Assembly (NCBI GenBank): GCA_034522695.1
Contig: JAXHLB010000038.1
Span: 104,382 to 168,381 of the forward strand
DNA length: 64,000 nucleotides
Reading direction: 5' to 3'
Source of the DNA: Ignavibacteriaceae bacterium
Lineage (GTDB): Bacteria > Bacteroidota > Ignavibacteria > Ignavibacteriales > Ignavibacteriaceae
The notes below the pieces were generated by a model, which saw only the letters and a program-made list of their open reading frames with translations, did not search any database and was not told where the DNA came from. The first letter of the stretch is position 1. The number at the start of each line of letters is the position of its first letter. Of this stretch, positions 4,523 through 35,959 are shown in pieces. Both the position numbers and the translations under genes were made by a program.

Positions 4523-5368
4523 TTAAGTTGACTTGAAAACTTTTACTTCGAAATATGATTTGAGCAACAGATACAATTTATATCCGTTAGATATTCTAAC
4601 TCTTTTACTTTTTAACTGCTCAACATCCAGGCGCTTAATTTTTTTGAAAAGCATCAGGTAGTAAAGATATGCAGAGTAAACACCCAGCTTAACCGAAATA
4701 GGTAATCGAACTATTCCCCAGAATGCCTCTTTAAATTCAGCCTCGACTTCCTTTTCAAGCATAGCTTTGTTGTGGTCATCAACGTAATCAAGGTGATTAA
4801 CACCCGGGAGATAAATTCTTCCCCGGTCATTCAAATCACTCTGGATGTCTCTAAGAAAATTCACTTTCTGAAATGCAGCGCCAAGCATTCGTGCTGAATG
4901 TTCCAGCTCTTTGTATTTCTTTTCATCACCATCAACAAAAACTTTCAGGCACATTAAGCCAACAACTTCCGCCGAGCCATAAATATATTCATCATAGTTT
5001 TCTCTATTGTAAGATGAATTTGAAAGATCCATCTCCATACTTTTCAGGAAAGCAGAAATCAGCTTGCGGTCAATTCCGTAATTGTTCACAACTTTCTGGA
5101 ATGCGTGAAGAACCGGGTTTGTGGAAATACCGGTGTTTATTGCTTCCCACGTGTCGTTTGTAAATTTATTAAGAAGATACTCCTTATCGTATGAATGAAA
5201 TGTATCTACAATTTCATCAGCAACACGAACGAATCCGTAGATTGCAAAAATCGGATCGCGGTATTCCGGCTTGAATACTTTTATCCCGAGACTGAAAGAA
5301 GTGCTGTAAGCCGTTGTTAACTTTTTGCTCAGCTTGTAGCTGGTATTAGTGTAGTGTTCTAAAGTCAT
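4523..5368 (-). CDS. crtB: Phytoene synthase
   Basis: YGFVRVADEIVD and AFQKVNFLRDIQSDLNDRGRIYLP motifs (squalene/phytoene synthase family). Located in the crt operon. Confidence 0.85.
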   Translation of the reverse strand: MTLEHYTNTSYKLSKKLTTAYSTSFSLGIKVFKPEYRDPIFAIYGFVRVADEIVDTFHSYDKEYLLNKFTNDTWEAINTGISTNPVLHAFQKVVNNYGIDRKLISAFLKSMEMDLSNSSYNRENYDEYIYGSAEVVGLMCLKVFVDGDEKKYKELEHSARMLGAAFQKVNFLRDIQSDLNDRGRIYLPGVNHLDYVDDHNKAMLEKEVEAEFKEAFWGIVRLPISVKLGVYSAYLYYLMLFKKIKRLDVEQLKSKRVRISNGYKLYLLLKSYFEVKVFKST

Positions 5369-6829
5369 TTTCTATTCTCTCCATTACTAATTTTGAACTT
5401 ATTATTACCATTGGCAAACCAGTACCGGGCGTTGTCGATGCGCCAACATAATACAAGTTAGAAAGTTTTTCGTCTTTGTTTTTTGGTCTGAATGCACCAA
5501 CCTGGTTAATGTCGTGTGCAAGACCAAGTCCCGACCCTTTGTAAAGGTTGAGCATATTTGCCCAGTCATCGGGAGCTAATATTTTTTTTGTTATGATGTT
5601 ATTTTGAATATCAAAACCAACTCTGTTTGAAAGATCGTCAATAATATTTTGTGCAAGCTCTTCTTTGTCTTCCCACGATTTTTTGTATCGAAGATCAGGA
5701 ACCGGACAAAGAATAAATAAATTTTCGCATCCTTCCGGAGCGCAATTAGTTTCTGATTTTGAAAGGGCATTTACATAATAATAAGGCTTCTGTGGACTAA
5801 TCGAAGAAGTAAATATGGTATCAGCATATCCTCTGAAGTTGCTTCCAAGAAAATAATTGTGATGATTTAGCTTATCTATTTTTCCTTTCACACCGAGATA
5901 GATTGTAAACGGTGCAAGTGTCCAGTGCATTTTGTCAAGCTTTTCATCACTGAATTTTTCACGGTTCAAAATCTTTCCTCTGAATGAAGCGGCATCAGAA
6001 TTTGAAATGAAAATATCGGCACTCCATTTTTTCCCATTTTGATCAACTAATTCGTAAAGCTTGCCGTTATTGTTACCAACACTTACTATCTCCGTGTTAT
6101 AAATAATTTTCACGCCATTTTCATTCAGTATCTTAACTAATTCTTCAACCAGACGATACATTCCACCCTTAACTTTCCAGTAACCGTTGTGCTTCATCTC
6201 TGTATAATTCAGCAAAGAATAAATTGCCGGTGTCTGAAATGGTGTCGAACCGAGAAAGAAAGCAACAAGAGAGAAAATCACCTTTACTTCTTCAGATGTG
6301 AAATGTTTTTCAACCTCGCCCCACATATTTCTCTGAAGATATGGAAGATGCTTCAACGGAACGCGGCTTAGTTTCAAAACGTAATCAAGTTTATTGCTGA
6401 AGTTTGTCTTTACAACTTTGTCAACAGTATCATGAAAGAATTGTCCTGCACGCTTAAGATATTTTTCAGCATTCTCTTCAAGGTTGGGTTCAATATCTTT
6501 AAACTCTTCAGCAAGTTTCTTTAAGATCCTTGTAGATAAGTCGTGGTTTATCCTGTCCTTCAAAAAATACCTGGTATAGCGGATCGAGTTCTTCCAGTTC
6601 AATTGGAACTTTCATCCCGACACTATTCAAATAATTCATCAAGCTCATAAGTCATACTCATAAAAGACGGACCCATATCAAAGCGAAAACCATCCTGTTC
6701 AATAACATTCAGTCTTCCGCCGGGAGTTGAATGCTTTTCAAGAATAGTTACATCGTAACCCTTCTTGGAAAGTCTTAAAGCGGTTGATAAACCGCCAAGT
6801 CCTGATCCTATGATAACTGCTTTTTTCAT
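5346..6829 (-). pseudogene. crtI: Phytoene desaturase, interrupted by at least two frame changes near codons 68-100
   Basis: The N-terminal 68 aa (6623-6829, MKKAVIIGSGLGGL...GPSFMSMTYELDELFE*) and the C-terminal 418 aa (5346-6602, ...YYVGASTTPGTGLPMVIISSKL) belong to the same protein family. A third frame between them reads VGMKVPIELEELDPLYQVFFEGQDKPRLIYKDLK. Confidence 0.75.
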
Positions 6830-6903
6830 TTTTAAATTTTATGATTAATGAGGTAGCTATAAGATAATGTTTTTAGAATTTAGATTCTGTTACTTTTATA
6901 TTA

Positions 6904-7012
6904 AATGAGGAAACCACTTGTTTTGCTTGGTTCAAATATGTCATTACTTCAAAATCGTGTCAGAGTTAACATTTGAATAATACAACTCTTAATACAAGTG
7001 GTATTCCTCATT
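6904..7012. promoter_or_regulatory. Long-range inverted repeat between the DUF4397 gene stop and the crt operon start
   Basis: AATGAGGAAACCACTTGT (6904-6921) matches ACAAGTGGTATTCCTCATT (6994-7012) at 18 of 19 bp, with arms about 72 bp apart. Confidence 0.3.
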
Positions 7013-7023
7013 ACTTATTCTAT

Positions 7024-9435
7024 TTATTTAAGAAGATTCATTTTCTTGATTTCTCTGAAGTTTCCGGCCTTCAACTCATACAAATAAACACCAGAAGCCA
7101 GGTTTAATGCATCAAAGTTAAATTTGTACGAACCTGCAGAAAGATTTTCGTTCACCAAGGTTGCAACTTCGCTTCCGAGAATATTATACACTTTCAACGT
7201 TACAAAATCGCTATTCGGGATTGTAAAATTGATATTTGTGCTCGGGTTAAACGGATTCGGATAATTCTGTGAAAGAGAATAATTGCTGGGGGTTACACCA
7301 GAAATATTTTCAACACTTGCAACACCCTCTGGAAATTGTCCAACTGTTCCATCAGCTAATACAAAGAATAAACCAAACGCTTCACCATTCTGGTTAGCAG
7401 AAGGATCCAGGAAACCTGAAGCAAATACAACTGCACTTCCACCACCAAGCGTTCTTAGGTCAGCAACGTATGACTGTACCAAAGTTGTGCCGTCAGCCAG
7501 TGTCAGATCGAGAGTATAGTTTCCCGCAGGAACCGGGATGTAACTAGTAATATCACCATAAGCAGCGTTGTCAACTAATGTTGCAACACCTCTAGCAATC
7601 ACATCAACGGTTGGAGCGTCAGTTGAACCGTGCAACACAAAGAAGTCAACATCACTACCGGTTCCTGATTCCCGAGCCATAGTCTTGATAAACAAAGTGA
7701 AAGCAGTGCTTCTTCCATCAGGATTTGAAGCATATTGAGATGGATTAAGAACACCGTTAGCTATTGCTACATAGGTCTCACCGTTTTCCAGTGTGACTTG
7801 AAAATTCTTTAACGTATCATTAACAGAGCCGCTGTTGCCCGGTGCAACGCCAATATTTAATTGAACACCAGCAGGTGCATCTATGAAAGGCGTAGCTGCT
7901 CTGAAACCAAAATCATTTAATAATAAAGTTCCATTTAAATAAATGTCCACAGGATCAGCTGCGATATCTGCAGCATTATGAATAACTTGTAATCTTGCTA
8001 ACTGAACAGAAGGAAATTCTACTACAGTTCCATTTGGTAATGCAGCGAAGATTCCAAAAGCCTCTCCATTTTGATTTGAAGATGGATCCAAGAATCCCGA
8101 AGCAAATACTACTGCAGCACCTCCGCCTAATCCACTTAAGTCAGCTTCGAAAGAAGCAACTATGGTTGAATTATTATTACCTGGTGTAACATCGAGGACG
8201 TATGATGCAGGTGGAACGGGGATATAAGAAGTGATATCACCATAAGCAGCATTGTCAACTAAAGTAGCAACACCTCTAGCAATTACATCAACAGTTGGAG
8301 CGTCAGTTGAACCGTGCAACACAAAGAAGTCAACATCACTACCGGTTCCTGATTCCCGAGCCATAGTCTTAATAAACAAAGTGAAAGCAGTGCTTCTTCC
8401 ATCAGGATTTGAAGCATAAGAATTAGGATCGAGTACACCGTTAGCTATTGCTACATAGGTCTCACCGTTTTCCAGTGTGACTTGAAAATTCTTTAACGTA
8501 TCATTAACAGAGCCGCTGTTGCCCGGTGCAACGCCAATATTTAATTGAACACCAGCAGGTGCATCTATGAAAGGCGTAGCTGCTCTGAAACCAAAATCAT
8601 TTAATAATAAAGTTCCATTTAAATAAATGTCCACAGGATCAGCTGCGATATCTGCAGCATTATGGATAACTTGTAATCTTGCCAATTGAATAGAAGGAAA
8701 TTCTACTACAGTTCCATTTGGTAATGCAGCAAAGATTCCAAAAGCCTCTCCATTTTGATTTGAAGATGGATCCAAGAATCCCGAAGCAAATACTGCAGCA
8801 GCACCGCCACCCAATCCACTTAAATCGGCTTGGAAGGATGCAACTATTGATGGATTATCACCAGTAGTAGCTATGTCAAGAATATATGACGCTGGTGGAA
8901 CAGGGATATAACCAGTGATATCACCATAAGCAGCGTTATCAACTAATGTTGCAACACCTCTAGCAATCACATCAACAGTTGGAGCGTCGGTAGATCCGTG
9001 CAACACAAAGAAGTCAACATCACTACCGGTTCCTGATTCCCGAGCCATAGTCTTGATAAACAAAGTGAAAGCAGTGCTTCTGCCATCAGGATTTGAAGCA
9101 AAAGAACCCGGACTTAAAACTCCATTTGCAATTGCTACGTATTTTTCATTTGCTGTTAGAGTGACATTAAAGTTTTTAATTGTATCAGCAGCAGAAGTGC
9201 TGTTAGGACCAGCAACACCGATATTAATTGGCGTGCCTGCTGGTGCATCGATAAAGGGTGTAGCTTCTCTGAAGCCGAAGTTGTCAAGTAATAAAGTACC
9301 GTTAAGATAAATATCTACTGCCACAGCACCCGGATCGGCAGCGTTGTGAATTACCTGCAATCTTGCAGTCTGAGCGAAAGTAAAATTTAGCCCCGTTATT
9401 AGAATTGCGGCTAAAAGAATTTTGAAAGTTTTCAT
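7024..9435 (-). CDS. Secreted repeat protein: three 228-aa units of paired DUF4397-like domains plus a T9SS C-terminal sorting domain
   Basis: Signal peptide MKTFKILLAAILITGLNFTFAQ. ARLQVIHNAAD...VDIYLNG and FFVLHGSTDAPTVDV modules are repeated three times. The C-terminus NYPNPFNPSTNINFTIP...LKVYNILGSEVATL...GVYLYELKAGNF is typical of Por/T9SS CTDs. Confidence 0.8.
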   Translation of the reverse strand: MKTFKILLAAILITGLNFTFAQTARLQVIHNAADPGAVAVDIYLNGTLLLDNFGFREATPFIDAPAGTPINIGVAGPNSTSAADTIKNFNVTLTANEKYVAIANGVLSPGSFASNPDGRSTAFTLFIKTMARESGTGSDVDFFVLHGSTDAPTVDVIARGVATLVDNAAYGDITGYIPVPPASYILDIATTGDNPSIVASFQADLSGLGGGAAAVFASGFLDPSSNQNGEAFGIFAALPNGTVVEFPSIQLARLQVIHNAADIAADPVDIYLNGTLLLNDFGFRAATPFIDAPAGVQLNIGVAPGNSGSVNDTLKNFQVTLENGETYVAIANGVLDPNSYASNPDGRSTAFTLFIKTMARESGTGSDVDFFVLHGSTDAPTVDVIARGVATLVDNAAYGDITSYIPVPPASYVLDVTPGNNNSTIVASFEADLSGLGGGAAVVFASGFLDPSSNQNGEAFGIFAALPNGTVVEFPSVQLARLQVIHNAADIAADPVDIYLNGTLLLNDFGFRAATPFIDAPAGVQLNIGVAPGNSGSVNDTLKNFQVTLENGETYVAIANGVLNPSQYASNPDGRSTAFTLFIKTMARESGTGSDVDFFVLHGSTDAPTVDVIARGVATLVDNAAYGDITSYIPVPAGNYTLDLTLADGTTLVQSYVADLRTLGGGSAVVFASGFLDPSANQNGEAFGLFFVLADGTVGQFPEGVASVENISGVTPSNYSLSQNYPNPFNPSTNINFTIPNSDFVTLKVYNILGSEVATLVNENLSAGSYKFNFDALNLASGVYLYELKAGNFREIKKMNLLK
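7315..9366. repeat. Three tandem 684-bp intragenic repeats; copies 2 and 3 are almost identical at DNA level over several hundred bp
   Basis: For example ATAGGTCTCACCGTTTTCCAGTGTGACTTGAAAATTC... begins at 7771 and again at 8455 (offset 684). The protein repeat starts at residues 24, 252 and 480. Confidence 0.9.
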
Positions 9436-20070: not shown

Positions 20071-20526
20071 AGACCGAAACAACTCTTCAAGTTTCTTTTC
20101 CCTGAAGCTGAAAATTTCTTTTACTTTCTTTTCAACCAGAAGTGAATTAATCGGTCTGCTCAACGGATCAAACGGAAGTGCGTAGCTGACAATATCTGTC
20201 ATCTCAACTCCGCTTTCTGTTTCTTTAAAATGATGCTGGTGATGCCAGAATTTATACGGACCAAATCTCTGCTCGTCAACAAAATAAAACGGCTCTTTAA
20301 CGTGAGTGATTTCCGTTACCCACGTGTTTGGTATTCCAAGCACCGGATGAACTTTGTAGGCGATTATCATTCCCGCATACATTTTATCCGGAAGCTTGCT
20401 GGTTACTTTAAAGTTAAGCCACTCAGGAGTAATGACTGAAAGATTATTCGGATTAGAGAAAAACTCCCACGCTTCATCAATCCCGATTGGTAAATTCTGA
20501 ACTGTTTTTAATTGATAGATTTTCAT
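20047..20526 (-). CDS. SRPBCC-superfamily (START-like) ligand-binding protein
   Basis: 159 aa with WEFFSNPNNL...ITPEWL...FVDEQRFGPYKFWHHQHHF, characteristic of this small SRPBCC family. Confidence 0.65.
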   Translation of the reverse strand: MKIYQLKTVQNLPIGIDEAWEFFSNPNNLSVITPEWLNFKVTSKLPDKMYAGMIIAYKVHPVLGIPNTWVTEITHVKEPFYFVDEQRFGPYKFWHHQHHFKETESGVEMTDIVSYALPFDPLSRPINSLLVEKKVKEIFSFREKKLEELFRSVIASTVI

Positions 20527-20540
20527 AATTGTGTAAACAA
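20450..20540. repeat. Direct repeat copy A (5' end plus leader of the SRPBCC gene)
   Basis: GGATTAGAGAAAAACTCCCACGCTTCATCAATCCCGATTGGTAAATTCTGAACTGTTTTTAATTGATAGATTTTCATAATTGTGTAAACAAA. By eye about 90% identical to 21430-21520. Confidence 0.85.
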
Positions 20541-20650
20541 AGGATGGAGGGAAATAATTCCGTATCTGAATCGCAGGAATTTGCCAGATCGAATTTATAA
20601 AAAAATAGAAAGAGTGAGTGTTTAATTCGATTTTACTGAACAGGTGGTTA

Positions 20651-21429: not shown

Positions 21430-21520
21430 GGATTAGAGAAAAACTCCCACGCTTCCTCAATCCCAATTGGTAAATTCTGAACTGTTTTTAACTGATAAAT
21501 TTTCATAATGGTTTAAACAA
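21430..21520. repeat. Direct repeat copy B (orphan duplicate of the SRPBCC 5' end)
   Basis: GGATTAGAGAAAAACTCCCACGCTTCCTCAATCCCAATTGGTAAATTCTGAACTGTTTTTAACTGATAAATTTTCATAATGGTTTAAACAAA. Confidence 0.85.
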
Positions 21521-21730
21521 ACCAGCTTGTCAAACAATTCCTTTTCTTCAGGATTCTATAAAATTGCAAGCAAGAAAAATTAACTTCCTGTATTATAACT
21601 GTGTCTCTTTAGCAAAAAAGCCAGTTATTTAGCGACTTTTTGTCAAAAAGCTTTCATTTCTGTAAAAATTTTATTATCTACAAAAACAATTTAAACACGA
21701 TAACCTATAAAACAGGAAAAACGGCGAAAA

Positions 21731-23858: not shown

Positions 23859-26021
23859 ATGGAAAATCTACAAAACAAAAAAGGACTCTACATTCAGCTT
23901 TACAGCATTCACGGGCTGATTAGAGGGCACAACCTCGAGCTTGGTCGTGATGCTGATACAGGCGGACAGACAAAGTACGTTCTCGAACTTGCAAAAACAT
24001 TAAGCGAAGATGAACGTGTTGAAAGAGTTGAGCTTGTTACAAGAGAAATAAAAGATAAATCTGTCTCAGCAGATTATTCAGTTCCCGAAGAAAAAATAAA
24101 TGATAAGTTTAGCATCATCAGGGTCAGATGCGGCGGAGGAAAATACATTCGCAAAGAATTGCTATGGAATCATCTTAATGAGTTTGTGGATAAGAGTATC
24201 AAGTATATCAAATCTGTAAAAAGACTCCCCGATATTATCCACAGCCATTATGCCGATGCAGGATATGTTTGCACAGAACTCACGCAGTTTTTTGGAATTC
24301 CGTTTGTGCACACAGGACATTCACTCGGAAGAGATAAGCTGAGAAAACTTTTAAGCGATGGTATGGATCCGGAGGATATTGAAAAGAGATATAAACTAAA
24401 TCACCGAATTGAAGTTGAAGAAAGCATTATCTACCTGGCCAATCTCATTGTAACAAGCACCAAGCAGGAAATAAAAAATCAATACGGTGATTACAAAAAT
24501 TCATCCGAAGAAAAATTCAGAGTTATTCCTCCCGGCGTTGATATTGAGAGATTCTATGCATACAACGAACGTGTTCCGCTTGATGAAGAAAATGCGGAGC
24601 TGATTAAAACGATAAGCAAGAAGCTGCTGAATTTCTTTGTCCATATTGATAAGCCGCTGATACTTACTGTATGCAGACCGGACAAAAGAAAAAATATTTC
24701 CGGATTGATCACTGCTTATGGTGAAGACAAAGAGTTACAGAAGAAAGCTAACCTCGCAATCTTTGCAGGAATAAGAACGGACATTCAGACAATGCCGGAT
24801 AATGAAAGAGAAGTACTCACAGAAATTCTTCTGCTGATGGATAAATATAATCTTTACGGCAAGATGGCAATTCCCAAAAGACATGATACACACACAGAAG
24901 TGCCTGAGCTTTACAGAATTGCCGCAGATACAAAAGGAGTTTTTGTAAACGCAGCACTTACCGAACCTTTCGGGTTAACTTTAATTGAAGCCGCTGCCTG
25001 CGGTGTTCCTGTTGTTGCAACCGATGACGGAGGTCCGAGAGATATTATTAAGAATTGTCAAAATGGATTACTCGTGGATGTAACCGAGACAAAAAATATT
25101 TCTGAGGCGATAAATAAAATTATTGATGATCAAAACCTGTGGAAACAATTTTCGGAGAACGGAATGAAAAACGTGAGAAAACATTATACCTGGAATGCGC
25201 ACGTTGAAACTTACATAGAAGAAATCGGACAGATTGCCGGGACAAGAAAAGATGAAGAAAAAGTTTTTGCTCCTGTCGGCAGAAAACTGCTCAATGCGGA
25301 AAAATTAATTGTGTCGGATATTGACCACACTCTGCTCGGTGATGATAACGCATTAAAAGAATTCATTAAAATTTTGGAGAAGACGGATTCGAAGGTTGGT
25401 TTTGCGGTTGCAACAGGCAGAACAGTTGATTCAGCTTTTTCTGTTCTTAAAGAAAACAAAGTTCCTTACCCGGACATAATTATTTCATCTGTTGGTGCGG
25501 AGATTTATTACAATTACCAGGGCAAACTTATTAATTCAACAGGATGGGACGCTCACATAAAACATCAATGGAACAGGGAAAAAATCAAAAAACTTCTTGA
25601 GGAATTTGATTTCCTACAGTATCAGGAAGAAAGCACACAAAGAAAATTTAAGATAAGCTATTACACATCCGATGTGCCGGAGAATATTCAAAAGGTTAAA
25701 TCCACATTGATAAAAAGCAAAACAAAAGCGAATGTAATTTTCAGTCACGGACAGTATCTTGATATTCTTCCGTACCGTGCATCGAAAGGAAAAGCAATCC
25801 GTTATCTTGCTTACAGGTGGAACATCCCTTATGAAAATATTCTGGTCGCAGGTGATTCCGGCAACGACAGCGAAATGCTCAAGGGTGATCTGCTCGGTGT
25901 TGTGGTTGCCAATTACAGCCCCGAACTGGAGGAGCTGAAAGGACAAAACAGGGTTTACTTCGCGAAAAGAAATTATGCGGGGGGAATTATTGACGGAATT
26001 AAACACTATAATTTTTTATGA
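23859..26021 (+). CDS. sps: Sucrose-phosphate synthase (GT4 domain fused to an SPP-like HAD domain)
   Basis: GLIRGHNLELGRDADTGGQTKYVLELA, EPFGLTLIEAAACGVPVVAT, and a C-terminal HAD-like LIVSDIDHTL...GDSGNDSEML. Confidence 0.85.
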   Translation: MENLQNKKGLYIQLYSIHGLIRGHNLELGRDADTGGQTKYVLELAKTLSEDERVERVELVTREIKDKSVSADYSVPEEKINDKFSIIRVRCGGGKYIRKELLWNHLNEFVDKSIKYIKSVKRLPDIIHSHYADAGYVCTELTQFFGIPFVHTGHSLGRDKLRKLLSDGMDPEDIEKRYKLNHRIEVEESIIYLANLIVTSTKQEIKNQYGDYKNSSEEKFRVIPPGVDIERFYAYNERVPLDEENAELIKTISKKLLNFFVHIDKPLILTVCRPDKRKNISGLITAYGEDKELQKKANLAIFAGIRTDIQTMPDNEREVLTEILLLMDKYNLYGKMAIPKRHDTHTEVPELYRIAADTKGVFVNAALTEPFGLTLIEAAACGVPVVATDDGGPRDIIKNCQNGLLVDVTETKNISEAINKIIDDQNLWKQFSENGMKNVRKHYTWNAHVETYIEEIGQIAGTRKDEEKVFAPVGRKLLNAEKLIVSDIDHTLLGDDNALKEFIKILEKTDSKVGFAVATGRTVDSAFSVLKENKVPYPDIIISSVGAEIYYNYQGKLINSTGWDAHIKHQWNREKIKKLLEEFDFLQYQEESTQRKFKISYYTSDVPENIQKVKSTLIKSKTKANVIFSHGQYLDILPYRASKGKAIRYLAYRWNIPYENILVAGDSGNDSEMLKGDLLGVVVANYSPELEELKGQNRVYFAKRNYAGGIIDGIKHYNFL

Positions 26022-26037
26022 ATAACAGGACAGAGCA

Positions 26038-28425
26038 ATGAGTAAAAAAATCGAAGCGTTATTAAAAGAAAAGAAAAAAGTATTCTGCAGGTATTTAACA
26101 AACGTTGCCTCAGTTGAAAGAAAACTACTAGTTAAAGGAGATCTTCTTGAAATACTCCGCAAGATGGAAAAGAAAAACGGAAAAAGTTTTGATGAGATAA
26201 GAGATGTCGTAAGTAAAATTATGGAATCTGTTTCTGTAGGAAGTTCTCTTTTTTTTGAGATGAGAGAAAAAATCGGGCTATCAAGTTTTCATCAATTCAA
26301 TACTGAAGACTGCAGCTATGAAAGAATAGGTTCTGTTGAATATCTTAAGGCAAAAGAGAGATACAAAGATCCGAAGCACACGAACGATCTGCTTACTTTG
26401 AACTTTCACGCTTTCTATGAGCAATTTCCAAGCATACATGAATCAAAAAATATTGGAAGAGGCGTGGAGTATCTTAACAGGTATCTCTCAAGCAAGCTGT
26501 TCACAAATACGGAAAAGATGAGTGAAGCGCTGTTCAATTTTCTTTTTGTACACAAACATAATTCAGAACAGCTTGTTCTGAACGACAGGATTAAAGACAC
26601 AGAAGGACTCACTTCATCAATTAACAAAGGCATCAGGCTTCTTTCTGAATACGAACTGGAAGAACCGTATAACAATATTAAACATAAACTGCAGGAACTT
26701 GGATTTGAACCCGGTCTTGGAAACACTGCCGGCACAATTAAAGAAGGACTTGAACAGCTCGACGCACTTATTAATACTCCCGATCACGAAGTGCTTAAAA
26801 GTTTTCTCTCACGCATCCCGATGATCTTTAACATTGCCATCATTACTCCGCACGGCTACTTTGCACAGGAAGATGTTCTCGGCAAACCGGATACCGGAGG
26901 GCAGATTGTTTACATACTTGACCAGGTTAAAGCGCTTGAAAAAAATATGAACAAGTCATTGGAAGATGCGGGGATTGAAACAAGTCCGAAAATAATTATC
27001 CTCACAAGATTGATTCCGAATTCAGATGGAACATCCTGCAATCAGAGAATGGAGAAAGTCCACAACACAAAGAATGTATGGATACTCCGCGTGCCTTTCA
27101 GAGATCATAATAAAAAAGTAACCGACAACTGGATTTCACGTTTTGAAATCTGGCCTTACCTCGAAGAGTTTGCTGAAGATTCATACAAAGAACTTCTTGT
27201 TGAATTCGGAACGAGACCGGATTTGGTTATCGGAAATTATTCTGATGGCAATCTTGTGGCATCGATACTTACAAAAAGATTTGGAGTTACTCAATGCAAC
27301 GTTGCACACGCACTCGAGAAAAGTAAATATCTTTACAGCGGACTTTACTGGAAGGAAATGGAAGAGCAGTATCACTTCTCAACTCAGTTCACTGCAGATC
27401 TTCTGGCAATGAACGCTGCCGATTTCATTATAACATCAACTTACCAGGAAATTGCAGGACGCGAAGACAGCATCGGGCAGTATGAATCTTATGTGAACTT
27501 TACTATGCCCGGACTTTACCGCGTCTCCGGCGGAGTAAATATTTTTAATCCAAAGTTCAACATACTTCCTCCCGGAGTTAATGCAGAAGTTTTCTTTCCT
27601 TATCATCAGCAGGAAAACAGAGTTAAGGAAATGACGGAAGAAGTAGCTCAAAAACTTTTTATAACTAATTCGGAGAGAATTATCGGTGAACTGAAAAATC
27701 CCGATCTGCCGCCGATATTTTCTATGGCAAGACTGGATAAGATTAAAAACCTTACTTCGCTGGTTAAATGGTTTGGTGAAAGCGAAGAACTCCAGTCGCT
27801 TGCTAATCTTATAATTGTTGCGGGAAAAATTAATGCAGAACACTCGACGGACTCCGAAGAAAAAGAACAGGTTCGCCTGATGCACGAATACATTAACAAG
27901 TATAACCTGAAAGATAAAATAAGATGGATACAGGGAGATGCCGACCGGCAGCGTGTTCCTGAATTTTACAGGTTGATAGCAGATAAGCGAGGAGTTTTTG
28001 TTCAGCCGGCTTTGTTTGAAGGATTTGGTCTGACGGTAATTGAAGCAATGCGTTCCGGTCTGCCGACGTTTGCAACTCAGTACGGCGGACCGCTTGAAAT
28101 TATTGAGAACAAAGTCTCCGGTTTTCATATTGACCCAATAAACGGAAATGAAACAACCGAAAAGCTGGTTAACTTTTTTAAGCGCTGCAAAGAAGAAGAA
28201 AATTACTGGAAGAAAATCTCCGATGCAGGAATTACACGCGTTGATAAATCTTTTAACTGGGAACTTTACTCGCAGAATCTTCTGTCGCTTGCAAAGATTT
28301 ACGGCTTCTGGCGTTACACAACAAACCTTGAGATGACGGAGCTTAACGCTTATCTCGATTTAATGTATCACACGTTGTATAAACCAAGAGCGGAAAAAAT
28401 ATTGGAGATGCACGCAGGCAAGTAA
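26038..28425 (+). CDS. susA: Sucrose synthase
   Basis: 795 aa with GKPDTGGQIVYILDQVKALE and EGFGLTVIEAMRSGLPTFATQYGGPLEII. The length and motifs are typical of SuSy. Confidence 0.85.
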   Translation: MSKKIEALLKEKKKVFCRYLTNVASVERKLLVKGDLLEILRKMEKKNGKSFDEIRDVVSKIMESVSVGSSLFFEMREKIGLSSFHQFNTEDCSYERIGSVEYLKAKERYKDPKHTNDLLTLNFHAFYEQFPSIHESKNIGRGVEYLNRYLSSKLFTNTEKMSEALFNFLFVHKHNSEQLVLNDRIKDTEGLTSSINKGIRLLSEYELEEPYNNIKHKLQELGFEPGLGNTAGTIKEGLEQLDALINTPDHEVLKSFLSRIPMIFNIAIITPHGYFAQEDVLGKPDTGGQIVYILDQVKALEKNMNKSLEDAGIETSPKIIILTRLIPNSDGTSCNQRMEKVHNTKNVWILRVPFRDHNKKVTDNWISRFEIWPYLEEFAEDSYKELLVEFGTRPDLVIGNYSDGNLVASILTKRFGVTQCNVAHALEKSKYLYSGLYWKEMEEQYHFSTQFTADLLAMNAADFIITSTYQEIAGREDSIGQYESYVNFTMPGLYRVSGGVNIFNPKFNILPPGVNAEVFFPYHQQENRVKEMTEEVAQKLFITNSERIIGELKNPDLPPIFSMARLDKIKNLTSLVKWFGESEELQSLANLIIVAGKINAEHSTDSEEKEQVRLMHEYINKYNLKDKIRWIQGDADRQRVPEFYRLIADKRGVFVQPALFEGFGLTVIEAMRSGLPTFATQYGGPLEIIENKVSGFHIDPINGNETTEKLVNFFKRCKEEENYWKKISDAGITRVDKSFNWELYSQNLLSLAKIYGFWRYTTNLEMTELNAYLDLMYHTLYKPRAEKILEMHAGK

Positions 28426-28429
28426 GTTC

Positions 28430-28505
28430 ATTCCGTCCCGACTTTATCGGGATCGGAATCTTTATGCTTGATTCTGAGTTGGGAGAAGAACCTGAAACGA
28501 GTTCA
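28430..28505. repeat. REP-like hairpin element immediately after the susA stop
   Basis: ATTCCGTCCCGActttatTCGGGATCGGAAT hairpin. A related element (GTCATTCCGGACTTGATC...) interrupts the third susA-tail copy at about 29390-29510. Confidence 0.5.
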
Positions 28506-28515
28506 GGTTGAAAAT

Positions 28516-28609
28516 AGATGACGGAGCTTAATGCTTATCTCGATTTAATGTATCATACATTGTATAAACCAAGAGCAAAAACTATTCTTGAAATACATCA
28601 AAGCAGATG
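28516..28609 (+). repeat. Diverged duplicate of the last ~30 codons of susA (tail copy 2)
   Basis: AGATGACGGAGCTTAATGCTTATCTCGATTTAATGTATCATACATTGTATAAACCAAGAGC... encodes MTELNAYLDLMYHTLYKPRAKTILEIHQSR*. The native tail at 28330-28425 encodes ...RAEKILEMHAGK*. Confidence 0.85.
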
Positions 28610-28617
28610 AGTTAACA

Positions 28618-28650
28618 AGATATGCCAGATTTCAAAAATCTGGCATATCT
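28618..28650. other. Perfect 15-bp stem hairpin following tail copy 2
   Basis: AGATATGCCAGATTT-caa-AAATCTGGCATATCT. A degenerate copy lies at about 29618-29647. Confidence 0.6.
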
Positions 28651-28721
28651 AAATACAAACCGGGAGAGTAAAAGATATTTGAGATGCGGGAGAGATAATG
28701 AAGGAGTTCAACAATTATCGG

Positions 28722-29009
28722 TTATCTATCTAGCCAGTAGTTTGGTTTTCTGTGCTGATGTGCGATGGCAATTACCTGAATATAATCATTATGAATTGTG
28801 TATACAATATTGTAAGGAAAAACATTAACAACCGCCTTCCTTGTGTGTTTTGTGTATTCTGAATAACCTACAGAGTTATTTTTTATTATTGACAATGTCT
28901 TATCTATTTCTGTTGCAAACTTGTTTAACGATCCTACACTTTGCAAATTATAGAAATCAATGGTCTACCGATATTCGATAAGGGCAGGTTCGAGAAATTC
29001 GACTGTCAT
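28722..29009 (-). pseudogene. RelE/ParE-family toxin with an in-frame stop
   Basis: ATG at 29007-29009 gives MTVEFLEPALIEYR*TIDFYNLQSVG...VFPYNIVYTIHNDYIQVIAIAHQHRKPNYWLDR. The C-terminal pattern is typical of ParE/RelE toxins. Confidence 0.6.
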
Positions 29010-29209
29010 TTATTTATGATATCTTCGAGTAGGGATAGCTTTAATTTTTCCTTTTGATAAAACAGTTCATATCTTCTTTCGACTTCCTCTTCCAGAAGTT
29101 GTCTATCTCTTTATCTGGCTGCTTATAGACTTTTTGAAAAGCACAATGATAAAGGTTGTTCTGCGGATTCAGACTCAAAGCGTTTTGAGTTATATTTCTT
29201 AGTGTCCAT
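29006..29209 (-). pseudogene. Addiction-module antitoxin remnant (frameshifted), ATGA-coupled to the toxin
   Basis: MDTKKYNSKRFESE... with frame changes, then ...LEEEVERRYELFYQKEKLKLSLLEDIINK*. It is homologous to the second copy at 29739-29937. Confidence 0.45.
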
Positions 29210-29299
29210 CTATTCTCCAATATTTTTGTACTTACTATAATGGAAAAGCGCTAGTCAGAAATTCAAGTGAGAAACTTCCGATTGACCTTGTTAAACACG

Positions 29300-29608
29300 T
29301 TTATTCAAAAGACCTTCTATCGCTTGCAAAGATTACGGTTTCTGGAAGTTCACGACTTAACCTGAGATGACTCAGCTTAATGCGCCCCTGTCATTCCGGA
29401 CTTGATCAAGAATCTTAAATGTTTGATCCTGAGTTAGAAGAAGAACCCTCCAAAGGACTCCTTCGGAGAAACAATCCGTGAATCAAGTTCAGGACAAGGT
29501 TCAGGTTGAAAAACAGATAACGGAACTGAATGTCTATCTCGATTTAATGTATCACACGTTGTATAAGCCGAGAGCAAAAACTATTCTGGAAATGCATCAG
29601 AGAAGGTG
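29300..29608 (+). repeat. Third, longer and interrupted copy of the susA 3' end (tail copy 3)
   Basis: CTTCTATCGCTTGCAAAGATTACGGTTTCTGGAAG... is homologous to native 28270-28350. A REP insertion follows, then ACGGAACTGAATGTCTATCTCGATTTAATGTATCACACGTTGTATAAGCCGAGAGC... encoding ...RAKTILEMHQRR*. Confidence 0.8.
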
Positions 29609-29738
29609 AGTTAGCAAGATATGCAGATTTTTGAAATCTGACATATCTAAATACAAACCGGGAGCGGAGAGAATTCTTGAGGTGCATGAGAGAAGATAGA
29701 GAAGCCGCAAGCCAAACTATATTTTGAATGATTATCTT

Positions 29739-29937
29739 TTAACCAGTAGTTTGGTTTTCTGTGCTGATGTGCGTGACGTAGGGGATAGTTTTTATTTTTC
29801 CGTTGACGAACTGTTCATATCTTCTTTCAACTTCCTCTTTCCAGTACCTTGTCTTTGACTTTATCAGGCTCGCTTAAACTTTTTGAAAGAGTCTCTATAA
29901 TAAAATCATTAAGAGATTTAACTTCTGGTTTAGTCAT
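29739..29937 (-). pseudogene. Second antitoxin copy fused to the last ~35 bp of a deleted RelE/ParE toxin
   Basis: MTKPEVKSLNDFIIETLSKSLSEPDKVKDK... (frameshift) ...EEVERRYEQFVNGKIKTIP. It then runs directly into CGCACATCAGCACAGAAAACCAAACTACTGGTTAA, which matches the toxin end at 28732-28760. Confidence 0.5.
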
Positions 29938-30660
29938 AATGAAAACAGGTATTCACTATAATAACAAAAATTTGTCTTTGATATTCCATTTCAGTTCTTG
30001 CTTTACCGCCGCTTACGGGTGCCAGGTAATATTCAATACAGAATATTGGGGTTTCTATTTCATCACTATAGTGATATTTTTCTGTTGTAAAAGGAAAACC
30101 TTCCTCAAACACAGCAAACGAACAATCTTGCAGGAGAATTAAAGAATCTTCATCATAATGTCTACCAACTACGAAATATAATTTGTAATTACCATCTTTA
30201 ATTTTTCTAATTGTAAAATTAGAATTACTTGTAACATAAATAGTGAGAACAAGAATTTATTAATTGCGGCCGCAACTAATTTAACAACCGACTCATTGCT
30301 GGTTCCATTTTTAAATTGTTAATTCGCCAAGTCCATCAAATAGCTTCATCTTTCTTATTAAATATATTTTTCCATTAGGCTCCTCTATTTCGGAAATGTT
30401 GCCATAGTCAATTGTTTTTTTATTTTCTGATTTGAAAACATATGATTTGCAGGACTTATTTCCTTTTAAATTTGGATTGGTTTATCCTCCTCAATAAGCT
30501 TATCATATATCCGATTTCTGTATCGTTAATGGCGTTGGGATGATTGTATTTTCAAGGTCATAATTATACACAGTTTTATTAGGGTCCAATATTTCTATAC
30601 TTTGTATAAAATAGAAAACATGTGTTATTGTTATAAAGAAAAAAGGGACCAATCCTTTTT
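29930..30660 (-). pseudogene. Hypothetical small protein remnant, several frame changes
   Basis: Fragments read ...DYGNISEIEEPNGKIYLIRKMKLFDGLGELTI / KNGTSNESVVKLVAAAINKF / TIYVTSNSNFTIRKIKDGNYKLYFVVGRHYDEDS...FPFTTEKYHYSDE. No family assigned. Confidence 0.3.
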
Positions 30661-35363: not shown

Positions 35364-35959
35364 TCAAACCTTCAGCACACCGCAGAAACCCCGGGCAGCA
35401 TAGTATGATCCGCCCCCCCCCCCCGCCCCGACGCCCCCCCGGCCTCAGCCCCGTTGTGATACGTAAAAACTTTTTCGTACCGTCGATCGCAAAAAATAGC
35501 TCCTCCAAGTTTTCTGATATCAGCCGGTGTCTTCACCCAGCTCGATGTTTTCAAATCGAAGTTACCAAGTTTCTGCAATTCACGGTATTGTTCTTCAGTT
35601 AACAATTCAATACCCATTGCAGTTGCCATATTAATAGCGCTGTCTTTTGGTTTATTTTCTTTTCTTGATGCCAGTGCTTCAGCGTCGTAACAAAGACTTC
35701 TGCGACCACCTGGACTCTCAGTTGAACAATCATAAAAAATGTATTCATCCGTCTTTGCATTGTGTCCAACAACATCCGGTTCACCGCCGGTTCTTTCCAT
35801 TTCATTAAGCGACCATAGTCTTTCGTTATTTTTTTTCAGCTTTGTTTCAACTTTAGCCCACTCAATATTCTTGTGGCGATTCATATTTTTCTCGAATCGT
35901 GTTTTTAATGTTTTGAGAAGTTCTTCACTCTGTTTTGGCGATAATATTTTTTTCGGCAT
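35364..35959 (-). pseudogene. DUF4256-family protein disrupted by a 35-nt C-rich insertion
   Basis: MPKKILSPKQSEELLKTLKTRFEKNMNRH...GGAIFCDRRYEKVFTYHNGAE, then the insertion at 35409-35443, then (shifted frame) SYYAARGFCGVLKV* with the stop at 35364-35366. Confidence 0.65.

Follow-up and report, generated by a model that had tools for sequence, protein, structure and literature searches.

Displaced sucrose synthase gene ends bordering a hypervariable region: a probable record of recombination with DNA from related species

Strings of orphaned 3′ gene regions are known from T6SS and rhs loci, where homology-facilitated illegitimate recombination is invoked to explain them (PMC5361080). In the C-terminal displacement that builds orphan-module arrays at rhs, CDI and T6SS effector–immunity loci (Jackson et al. 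2009; Kirchberger et al. 2017, PMC5361080), a conserved gene upstream serves as anchor for homologous pairing, a new 3′ end and the genes downstream of it arrive on the incoming DNA, and the previous 3′ end moves downstream with its partner genes, as orphans that match functional versions in other strains. The proposed mechanism involves no integrase, and once the composite arrays exist, homologous recombination exchanges them. Restriction–modification units with long target duplications (Nobusato et al. 2000; Furuta et al. 2010, PMC2853133) offer a second precedent: small and selfish, and without mobility genes, they lie between direct repeats of 46–423 bp. Where the site is empty the genome has one copy of the repeat, which often overlaps a gene 3′ end; the paired repeats can drive amplification and loss. 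The published repeats are near-identical (e.g. 44/46, 417/423) and were read as in-situ duplications (PMC2853133).

The locus described here, downstream of the sucrose synthase gene susA, resembles the first group in all of these features, and the second in its small units between direct repeats, its lack of mobility genes and the capacity of such repeats for amplification and loss. It lies in a 64,000-nucleotide stretch of Ignavibacteriaceae DNA ('the window'). We think, with moderate confidence, that it is a trail of displaced gene ends bordering a hypervariable region, and that it arose, without a recombinase, through repeated recombination events with related species' DNA.

Gene ends, hairpins and cassettes downstream of susA

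The ORF list gives susA (26038..28425, + strand) as a sucrose synthase of 795 aa, with orthologues at 64–96% identity. The gene is conserved genus-wide; the DNA 3′ of its stop codon is not. Its final 96 nt form the resident, functional tail, T1 (28330-28425, + strand, ending YKPRAEKILEMHAGK and a stop). Beyond T1 the window contains five further susA 3′-end pieces, all on the + strand (28516-28610, 28651-28701, ~29300-29386, 29511-29609 and 29649-29700); nhmmer E-values for the displaced copies run from 5e-8 to 2e-12, well above chance similarity, and the 3.64-Mb genome holds no other copy of the susA end except on the homologous contig C6. The first-pass annotation had reported several diverged susA ends interleaved with hairpins and cassettes, and these are real, lying where it placed them or a few bases away; the 'longer tail copy' it gave at 29300-29608 is two pieces, 29300-29386 and 29511-29609, with a hairpin-doublet spacer between.

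The displaced tails are in various states of repair. T2A (28516..28610, + strand; susA-end positions 67-163, from the ORF list and nhmmer) remains an unbroken ORF of 30 codons, MTELNAYLDLMYHTLYKPRAKTILEIHQSR, and ends in its own stop; identity to T1 is 95% in the core and just 55% over the last 33 nt. The repeat units of C6 behave similarly (95% identity over the first ~143 nt, then ~60%), and such sharp drops are as expected for exchange tracts. The remnant T3A (28651..28701, + strand), aligned with an orphan tail in the relative G007, reads YKPGE, an internal stop, then KIFEMRER and a final stop; it derives from a joint between the hairpin REP2 and position 52, followed by an internal deletion of ~60 bp between AAACC repeats. 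In the second half of the array, the long piece (29265..29386, + strand; nhmmer match 29302-29386, E = 5e-8) covers positions 3-88 with certainty from 29300, and weak similarity may extend back to ~29265. This piece carries a frameshift and is missing positions 89-163, a truncated form found in G017 as well. T2B (29511..29609, + strand; positions 67-163, ITELNVYLDLMYHTLYKPRAKTILEMHQRR and a stop) has lost its ATG and kept its frame and stop. T3B (29649..29700, + strand; KYKPGAERILEVHERR and a stop) is a remnant that matches the native tail of G016 with 94% identity across 35 nt.

Two kinds of hairpin separate the tails. A REPIN-like doublet (28426..28515, + strand; fold -29.3 kcal) has its first hairpin, 28429-28460, immediately 3′ of the susA stop codon and its second, AACCTGAA-N5-TTCAGGTT, at 28489-28509; its 3′ end abuts T2A, forming what we call the REPIN-67 joint. 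The corresponding doublet in unit B (29387..29510, + strand) has a degenerate first hairpin and an expanded loop in the second. REP2, found by repeat search (28611..28650, no strand assigned; fold -20.9 kcal), is a perfect 15-bp stem, 28618-28632/28636-28650, with GTTAACA as left flank, and its unit-B equivalent (29616..29648, no strand assigned; -13.8 kcal) is a degenerate hairpin with one bulge. The doublet has ~23 dispersed copies in the genome; REP2-family members, dispersed in congeners too, flank a frameshifted RAYT (Y1_Tnp) gene on contig C20. The hairpins between the tails are thus ordinary genome-wide REP/REPIN repeats sitting 3′ of stop codons, and not the bodies of the 'small elements' that had been envisaged.

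The cassettes are passengers, decayed in this genome, and both window copies are frameshifted or deleted. Cassette A (28722..29262, - strand; six-frame reading) comprises a ParE-like toxin without its N-terminus (28725-28964) and an Unstab_antitox antitoxin spread over three frames (29009-29250), with the promoter region reaching ~29262. The toxin–antitoxin pair noted earlier as 'RelE/ParE' is indeed present, and is refined here to ParE_toxin plus Unstab_antitox, Pfam assignments made on the intact orthologue in G010. Cassette B (29740..29937, - strand) ends the array as proposed: a frameshifted antitoxin, extending to 29937, joined to the last ~12 codons of a deleted toxin, a stub (29740-29773) 97% identical to 28731-28764.

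Taken together, the three-tail composite (28265-28705 plus the cassette) recurs once, in diverged form, at 75–86% identity, the register offset from unit A to unit B passing from +1035 to +998 to +750. This bears out the view that the whole unit repeats, and it does not support five independent integrations: the pieces come down to roughly three historical joints—REPIN-67, REP2-52 with its later 60-bp internal deletion, and cassette promoter to position ~3—and one additional event that moved or duplicated the whole composite. Joint boundaries vary, falling at susA-end positions 3, 12, 52/57, 67, 100 and 112, and some carry short microhomologies (ATTTAAT in metagenome contig L031; ACAA(ACC) in G016 and G007). 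A weakness of the case for displacement is that no event was seen between near-identical genomes that would let a joint be set beside its true donor and recipient, so that microhomology at the joints is weakly tested.

The same site in relatives

Comparable arrays follow susA in several relatives. The order is T1-REPIN-T2-intact ParE/Unstab_antitox-REPIN-T3 in G010; T1-REPIN-T2-cassette-X260-T3-ParE/Phd-X260-T4 in G011, on a 363-kb contig; T1-Phd/ParE-long tail-REPIN-T2 in G017; T1-YHS lipoprotein and OMP barrel-terminator-short tail in L031; and T1-REPIN (with a MITE)-T2, and so on, in C6, where the cassette is absent. The REPIN-67 joint recurs in C6, G010 (twice), G011 and G017. Elsewhere a single tail is followed by unrelated DNA (G004, G016, G017:C7, G019, G002, G026, G029, G030), and one congener without susA retains an orphan tail alone. 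The susA 3′ end is an insertion hotspot, then, as was suggested: relatives show empty sites there, or other cargo, and the recurrence of one architecture with other cargo supports displacement. The opposite flank bears a mirror footprint, also in favour of displacement, the 5′ end of an SRPBCC gene being duplicated around a cassette; orphan susA tails adjoin the SRPBCC gene in G007 and G016.

Displacement and its alternatives

Displacement would proceed in two steps. In the first, DNA from a related lineage would pair within susA, the homologous anchor, and bring its own susA end along with whatever followed it; at its far end an illegitimate joint would form, within the recipient's susA end or ahead of it. 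This would leave the gene intact and push part of the old end rightward, along with the old downstream cargo. In the second step, which best explains the sequence statistics, the tail–insert–tail so formed, homologous on both sides to any susA, could spread by RecA-type recombination, or be lost, converted, or duplicated by unequal exchange; with every spread, the tail then working in the recipient would become a displaced one. 

Movement of cargo between species is suggested by its similarity. Cassette A is 79–81% identical in nucleotide sequence to the cassettes of G010 and G011, and the antitoxin DNA of cassette B is 89.6% identical to that of G011, 86% to that of G010 and just 81% to that of cassette A; the body of susA, at 71.5%, falls below both ranges (79–81%, 86–90%), and the REPIN inter-hairpin spacer is 90–92% identical between the window and G010. 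Two observations sit less comfortably with displacement. A hairpin abuts the 5′ side of every displaced tail, which the model does not predict and which counts against it; and T1 is typical of its clade (AEKILEMHAGK, as in G003, G016 and C6) while T2 is atypical, the reverse of the simplest version, in which the newest end is on the gene, so that a later exchange within T1 is required.

The principal alternative, which we regard as unlikely, is that each cassette, or even a bare REP, entered by some dedicated or cassette-linked mechanism and 50–440 bp of target were copied in situ, to diverge later. Cargo between direct repeats that occur once where the site is empty, with no mobility gene, is the pattern by which such duplications have been recognized (PMC2853133); the most recent pair, T2 and T3 around the cassette in G011, is 94% identical; and in another family (G049) a 53-nt repeat, unrelated in sequence, stands on either side of a related cassette, a hint of cassette-linked insertion that tells against displacement. 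Spare copies decaying in place, however, should show pN/pS of ~0.5–1. Displaced tails compared with their own native tails give pS 0.50, pN 0.027 and pN/pS ~0.05 (20 conserved codons), native tails compared between species give pS 0.55 and pN/pS 0.09, and copy comparisons overall span 0.05–0.11, all on 20–30 codons and non-independent pairs. Several tails, moreover, are cross-clade mosaics, some closer to other clades than to their own genome: the displaced tail of G017 joins a window-clade core to a G019-type end, and T2 of G010 is the reverse. These figures agree with the earlier description of the tails as alleles from different lineages. The REPIN-67 joint, too, is identical where the susA genes are just 71% alike, and so was inherited or transferred, not re-made.

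Site-specific integration of small elements carrying a replacement susA end (attP), the integrase being encoded elsewhere or lost and elements accreting in tandem, seems to us very unlikely. It would account for gene 3′-end direct repeats around cargo, an intact target, empty sites, stacking, and the one exact boundary common to the class-67 copies. That boundary, however, is always paired with the same REPIN sequence, as one historical joint would be and a recurrent core would not, and the others differ. Tyrosine recombinases (PF00589) gave no match on the contig (C38) nor, in seven genomes, close to any array, and no recombinase or transposase domain was found among pieces 72 aa or longer from 28.4–53.3 kb, nor any such domain in the array ORFs of relatives, the search for serine recombinases covering these last two regions. 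The remark that no integrase is visible therefore holds for contig, block, cargo and arrays alike; and of the 'Campbell-type or site-specific' integration proposed with it, the Campbell-type half, acting through gene-end homology, fits, and the site-specific half lacks both recombinase and constant core.

A purely local history is a shade less probable again. A susA end and terminator region duplicated in tandem long ago, then enlarged by unequal crossing-over in a single lineage with no transfer between lineages, would suit the repetition of one composite as units A and B, the 95%-identical heads of the C6 units, and the finding that within-genome core similarity is highest for WIN_A2, C6_2 and G011_2/3, as local conversion would give. 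It is at odds with the affinity of the cassette B antitoxin for G011 over cassette A, which conflicts with susA identity, with cargo that varies from genome to genome, with tails that match other clades above their own, and with the synonymous character of the divergence. No more probable is an assembly artefact, whether a false tandem made from two strains in one bin, with unit A taken from one and unit B from the other, or repeats mis-joined: bin contamination is 6.1%, C6 is a second collinear contig, C13 carries a second DprA, poly-G-type errors and indels occur, and contigs of G006 and G003 break at the susA end (that of G003 within the doublet), but exact matches between copies reach no more than a few tens of bases, the A/B junction lies outside shared repeat, and independent assemblies, the long G011 contig among them, contain equivalent arrays.

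Comparison with described systems

Like tRNA and tmRNA islands, and SCC at the rlmH 3′ end, the susA array keeps its target intact by means of an incoming gene end, displays attL/attR-like direct repeats, and has inserts in series with decayed inner copies; unlike them it lacks a recombinase and any constant core or boundary, and some of its 'bodies' are just REP hairpins. It shares with REP/REPIN-RAYT systems, reportedly the subject of Bertels and Rainey in 2011, two dispersed palindromic hairpin types, one of which flanks a RAYT-like Y1 transposase gene, and REPs placed exactly at joints; REP sequences are said to have been seen at tandem-duplication join points by Shyamala et al. in 1990. 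IS200-type transposition, however, is not known to produce long duplications, and the evidence here lends no support to a role for the RAYT in making the susA joints.

Restriction–modification units differ in that most susA copies are as diverged as those of different species, biased to synonymous changes and mosaic, that the cargo is toxin–antitoxin or other genes, and that events are stacked several deep. The footprint shared with the published T6SS/rhs model (PMC5361080) supports displacement at susA. In the rhs, CDI and T6SS arrays the displaced ends are toxin tips under diversifying selection and the payloads are effector–immunity pairs; here the anchor is a metabolic enzyme, the displaced ends are functionally equivalent and short, 50–160 nt, and the payload is toxin–antitoxin cassettes and miscellaneous small genes, instead.

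The composite behind susA

The fused sucrose-phosphate synthase/phosphatase gene (23859-26021) and the sucrose synthase gene, susA (26038-28425), are both intact; few long ORFs lie between 28.4 and about 51.4 kb. The resident tail of susA, T1 (28330-28425), has a hairpin directly behind its stop codon, and then a spacer. Next come T2A, an intact 30-codon copy of the gene's end (28516-28610); a perfect hairpin with a 15-bp stem (28618-28650); T3A, a short copy that contains a stop (28651-28701); and, on the minus strand, a toxin-antitoxin (TA) remnant, TA_A (28722-29250). The second series begins with susA-end positions 3-88 (29300-29386; positions are numbered along the gene's 3' end, up to 163), and continues with a spacer of the type that follows T1 (29387-29510), T2B (29511-29609), a degenerate hairpin (29616-29648) and T3B (29649-29700), beyond which lie a 34-nt toxin stub and a broken antitoxin (TA_B). 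Every tail, hairpin and TA remnant listed in the first-pass annotation is thus present, and nhmmer recovers all of the tails, at E = 5e-8 to 2e-12. A profile search of the genome found no further tail copy except on contig C6. The register offsets between the two series—+1035, +998 and +750—make units A and B a single composite, repeated once, with deletions of 75 nt and ~260 nt in B.

What separates the tails is intergenic repeat of an ordinary kind rather than an element's body, because the 15-bp hairpin (REP2) is dispersed and the doublet behind T1 is generic. REP2 has 53 arm matches in the genome, and two copies lie on each side of a frameshifted IS200-type Y1_Tnp (RAYT-like) gene (C20:36530-37276): dispersed palindromes with copies flanking a Y1 transposase gene, as expected of REP/REPIN-RAYT systems. 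It is a true REP. The REPIN-like doublet comprises a variable hairpin right behind the stop codon, ~30 nt, and then GAyCCTGAAACrAGTTCAGGrT. It occurs in ~23 copies, and none of the three others examined (on C28, C31 and C51) is accompanied by a gene-end duplicate, so we reject the idea that this spacer is a special, susA-linked element. Every displaced tail adjoins a hairpin.

Two other repeats occur in this company. One is a ~350-bp MITE with the terminal inverted repeat CATAGGCGTCAAC, present on C6 (reverse complement, 6088-6432 and ~6700-7078) and also on C17 and C21; it inserts in REP hairpin loops with a target duplication of ~10-11 bp, and appears to target REP hairpins specifically. The other, X260, is a hairpin-rich repeat of ~280 nt without an Rfam match. 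Its two copies in relative G011 (locus L014, 3712-3990 and 4835-5113) are 95.7% identical and precede two long tails; parts of it also occur downstream of susA in G009, G019 and G017, and on contig C22 of the source bin. Rfam scans of the window from 27 to 53 kb, and of the G011 array, found no relevant RNA family.

The source bin, in which the window is C38:104382-168381, is 3.64 Mb in 51 contigs, 98% complete with 6.1% contamination. Contig C6 (38.8 kb) is collinear with the window from 21.4 to 53.7 kb at 84-96% identity. Because a second DprA gene is present on C13 (C13:9283-9907) and C6 ends within a repeat, C6 is probably a contig of a co-binned relative, and a second, related population has probably contributed contigs to the bin. 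C6 and the window differ by eight indels in the SPS/susA stretch (window 23859-28425), and each of these lies in a G run or creates one; together with a C-rich tract at 35409-35443, they point to errors of the poly-G type in sequencing or assembly, and so some of the frameshifts and 'decay' in the degraded block may be artefact rather than biology. An exact-protein look-up found no independent assembly of the same locus on record.

Arrays in relatives, and their joints

In the window, C6, G010, G011, G017 and a metagenome contig, L031, the conserved anchor gene has displaced 3' ends strung out behind it. On C6, whose susA is 96.8% identical to that of the window, the array differs: T1, a REPIN split by the 350-bp MITE, T2, a second REP1 with a second MITE, and a very decayed third tail. 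It has no TA cassette, and its two units are 95% identical over ~143 nt and then ~60%. G010 has T1, REPIN, T2, an intact ParE_toxin/Unstab_antitox pair, REPIN and T3. G011 has T1, REPIN, T2, a TA cassette of the G010 family, X260, a long T3, a ParE/PhdYeFM pair, X260 again and a long T4. On contig C15 of G017 the order is T1, PhdYeFM/ParE, a long tail cut at position ~91, REPIN and T2. In L031, genes for a YHS lipoprotein and an OMP beta-barrel protein follow T1, and then a terminator and a short tail that starts at position ~100. Eight other loci (G004, G016, G017:C7, G019, G002, G026, G029 and G030) have a single tail, with mutually unrelated DNA within a few bases of the stop. Direct repeats of the susA end thus bracket variable cargo, and empty sites occur in relatives. 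Scans of two collections with the susA C-terminus yielded only three useful loci from genomes (L027-L029, duplicates of G006, G003 and G017:C7) and one, L031, from metagenomes. Since structure and cargo differ so widely across the genus, the array is not one ancient, non-mobile duplication with unvarying contents, the outcome that the first-pass annotation had set against its own reading.

Displaced ends also occur as orphans. G007 (C216, reverse complement 4915-5071) is syntenic on both sides and has no frk-SPS-susA cluster; in its place are REP2 and a susA tail, from position 52, that carries a premature stop. In G016 (L018, C1 at ~127.2 kb), a tail from position 57 adjoins an SRPBCC gene upstream of the intact sucrose cluster. 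The window has a mirror image of the susA trail on the cluster's opposite flank: two copies of the 5' end of the minus-strand SRPBCC gene (20459-20541 and 21439-21521) enclose a small cassette.

The 5' boundaries of the copies fall at susA-end positions 3, 12, 52/57, 67, 100 and 112, and because these classes differ, the joints have no constant core. Boundary 67 is recurrent—both window units, C6, G010 (twice), G011 and G017—but the REPIN that flanks it does not change, so these are instances of a single joint. G007 has the joint of REP2 to position 52. T3A and T3B align with this joint if 60 nt between AAACC repeats are taken as deleted, and we therefore reject the reading that T3 began as a separate joint at position 112. 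The remaining joints are hairpin to 12 (G011, twice, and G017), TA promoter to ~3 (window unit B) and terminator to 100 (L031, with a 7-nt ATTTAAT overlap). The five or six pieces in the window go back to about three old joints and one event involving the whole composite. Candidate microhomologies at an illegitimate far joint are ATTTAAT in L031 and ACAA(ACC) in G016 and G007, with AAACC at the internal deletion.

Origin of the displaced ends

The displaced pieces look like functional ends of other lineages. Over 20 conserved codons—short sequences for statistics of this kind—a displaced tail compared with the functional tail of its own genome gives pS 0.50 and pN 0.027, a ratio of 0.05; between species, functional tails give pS 0.55 and a ratio of 0.09. 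The seven tails that start at position 67 have 2, 3 and 15 variable sites at the three codon positions (P = 1.7e-4) and neither indels nor internal stops, a pattern unlike that of a spare copy decaying in place. The displaced 30-codon ORFs (window 28518-28610, C6, G010, G011 and G017) keep frame, stop and mostly ATG, and vary mainly at third positions despite sharing one joint. Several tails are mosaic between the two clades of susA. In G017 the displaced tail joins a core of the window's clade to an end of the G019 type, and in T2 of G010 the arrangement is the reverse. In the window, T2A matches T1 at 95% in the core and 55% over the last 33 nt. Here T1 is typical of its clade and T2 atypical, so a later exchange within T1 is needed.

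The cargo, too, has crossed between species. TA_A is 79-81% identical to the cassettes of G010 and G011, and the TA_B antitoxin is closer to theirs (86-90%) than to TA_A (81%). Between window and G010, the unconstrained REPIN spacer reaches 90-92% identity; the susA body of the window is 71.5% identical to that of G010/G011. The intact G010 pair matches PF05016 (29.5 bits) and PF09720 (47.5 bits), both above cut-off, and is a type II ParE_toxin/Unstab_antitox system. The window copies are broken and homologous to those of G010 and G011 at the DNA level; the window's toxin fragment has no Pfam match.

The data—structure, variability, ancestry and the lack of a recombinase, all directly observed—fit anchored recombination, which we infer to proceed as follows. 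DNA from another lineage would pair within conserved susA and deliver its own gene end and downstream cargo; its far end would then be joined illegitimately, pushing a piece of the old end downstream together with the old cargo. Later, the tail-insert-tail structure, flanked on both sides by homology to any susA, could spread by plain homologous recombination, each transfer making the recipient's working tail the displaced one. Such spread would account for the shared joints with lineage-specific, coding-like tails, for the sharp steps in identity, and for unequal-exchange products like units A and B. ComEC and DprA are present, but at least 10 of 14 control genomes have them too, and they are hence little informative.

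Site-specific integration at the gene's 3' end, one of two routes suggested in the first-pass annotation, fits the bracketing repeats and empty sites, but no recombinase was found and there is no constant att core. As that annotation had also remarked, no integrase is visible: among seven genomes, tyrosine recombinase PF00589 has no match on the window's contig or near any susA array, and no recombinase domain occurs in pieces of at least 72 aa between 28.4 and 53.3 kb of the window (only DUF4256, CorA, CE2_N, AMP-binding fragments, HEPN, GNAT, HAD, SRPBCC, DUF4440 and EttA fragments), or in the relatives' cargo ORFs (TA proteins, a methyltransferase, DinB, a trypsin-like protease, DUF2971 and unknowns). 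A recent tandem duplication in situ is rejected as the origin of units A and B, TA_B being nearer to G011 than to TA_A. An integron/attC array is rejected, there being no IntI nearby and the cassette borders being susA ends and REP/REPIN repeats, and so, by eye, is a diversity-generating retroelement or template-variable repeat, for the differences are not adenine-specific; no reverse-transcriptase domain was found in the block.

In another family, genome G049 (locus L039, contig C7) carries ParE/Unstab_antitox as an intact cassette beside an Rhs-like C-terminal gene; its DNA is 73% identical to that of the G010 cassette. It is bracketed by a 53-nt, hairpin-containing direct repeat of unrelated sequence (1324-1376 and 2130-2182, 77% identical), and because of this repeat a mode of insertion linked to the cassette itself may also exist.

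Known systems of displaced gene ends

What lies behind susA is a real, well-supported array of recombination scars, and a variant of known phenomena of gene-end displacement and long target duplication. It offers a well-resolved natural case, in several related genomes, of how accessory cassettes, TA pairs among them, are exchanged beside a core gene with no dedicated recombinase. For annotators, tail fragments of this kind and their intervening REP hairpins are recombination scars, neither elements nor genes. We also entertain, as a rather doubtful extension, that copies of the end of a conserved gene serve as homology arms that can be carried between genomes. A cassette with a susA end on each side would then be mobile without a recombinase, entering any susA-bearing genome by way of the host's RecA, leaving by recombination between its arms, and crossing species within the genus; the displaced 30-codon ends, which stay open and evolve as coding sequence does, would cycle through the functional position or, on a bolder view, be expressed alone. 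Were this general, it would account for the spread of bare TA modules and other small cassettes without transposases.

Orphaned 3' regions are known from T6SS and rhs loci, for which an anchored illegitimate-joining route has been proposed (PMC5361080). Those arrays are alike in having a conserved anchor, a string of displaced ends, and pieces that resemble the functional ends of other lineages. They differ in that here there is no variable toxic C-terminal tip with its immunity gene, and the anchor is a sucrose synthase; the displaced susA ends encode the same conserved helix, and the cargo is ParE-type TA systems or unrelated small genes.

The footprint finds its nearest formal description in the insertion with long target duplication described for restriction-modification (RM) units: an insert of <20 kb, flanking direct repeats of >30 bp, present once in the empty genome, and no mobility gene (PMC2853133). 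All of these hold at susA. The RM-unit repeats, however, are near-identical and were read as duplications made in situ (PMC2853133), whereas near-identical copies of the recipient's target are the exception at susA. In the variable end, most pairs share 55-91% identity and show a between-species synonymous pattern; only T2/T3 of G011 (94%) and T1/T2 of C6 (91%) are close. Coding-type divergence of the displaced end is a simple test of whether an end was imported or its target duplicated in situ, and could serve for the many reported cassettes with long flanking target duplications.
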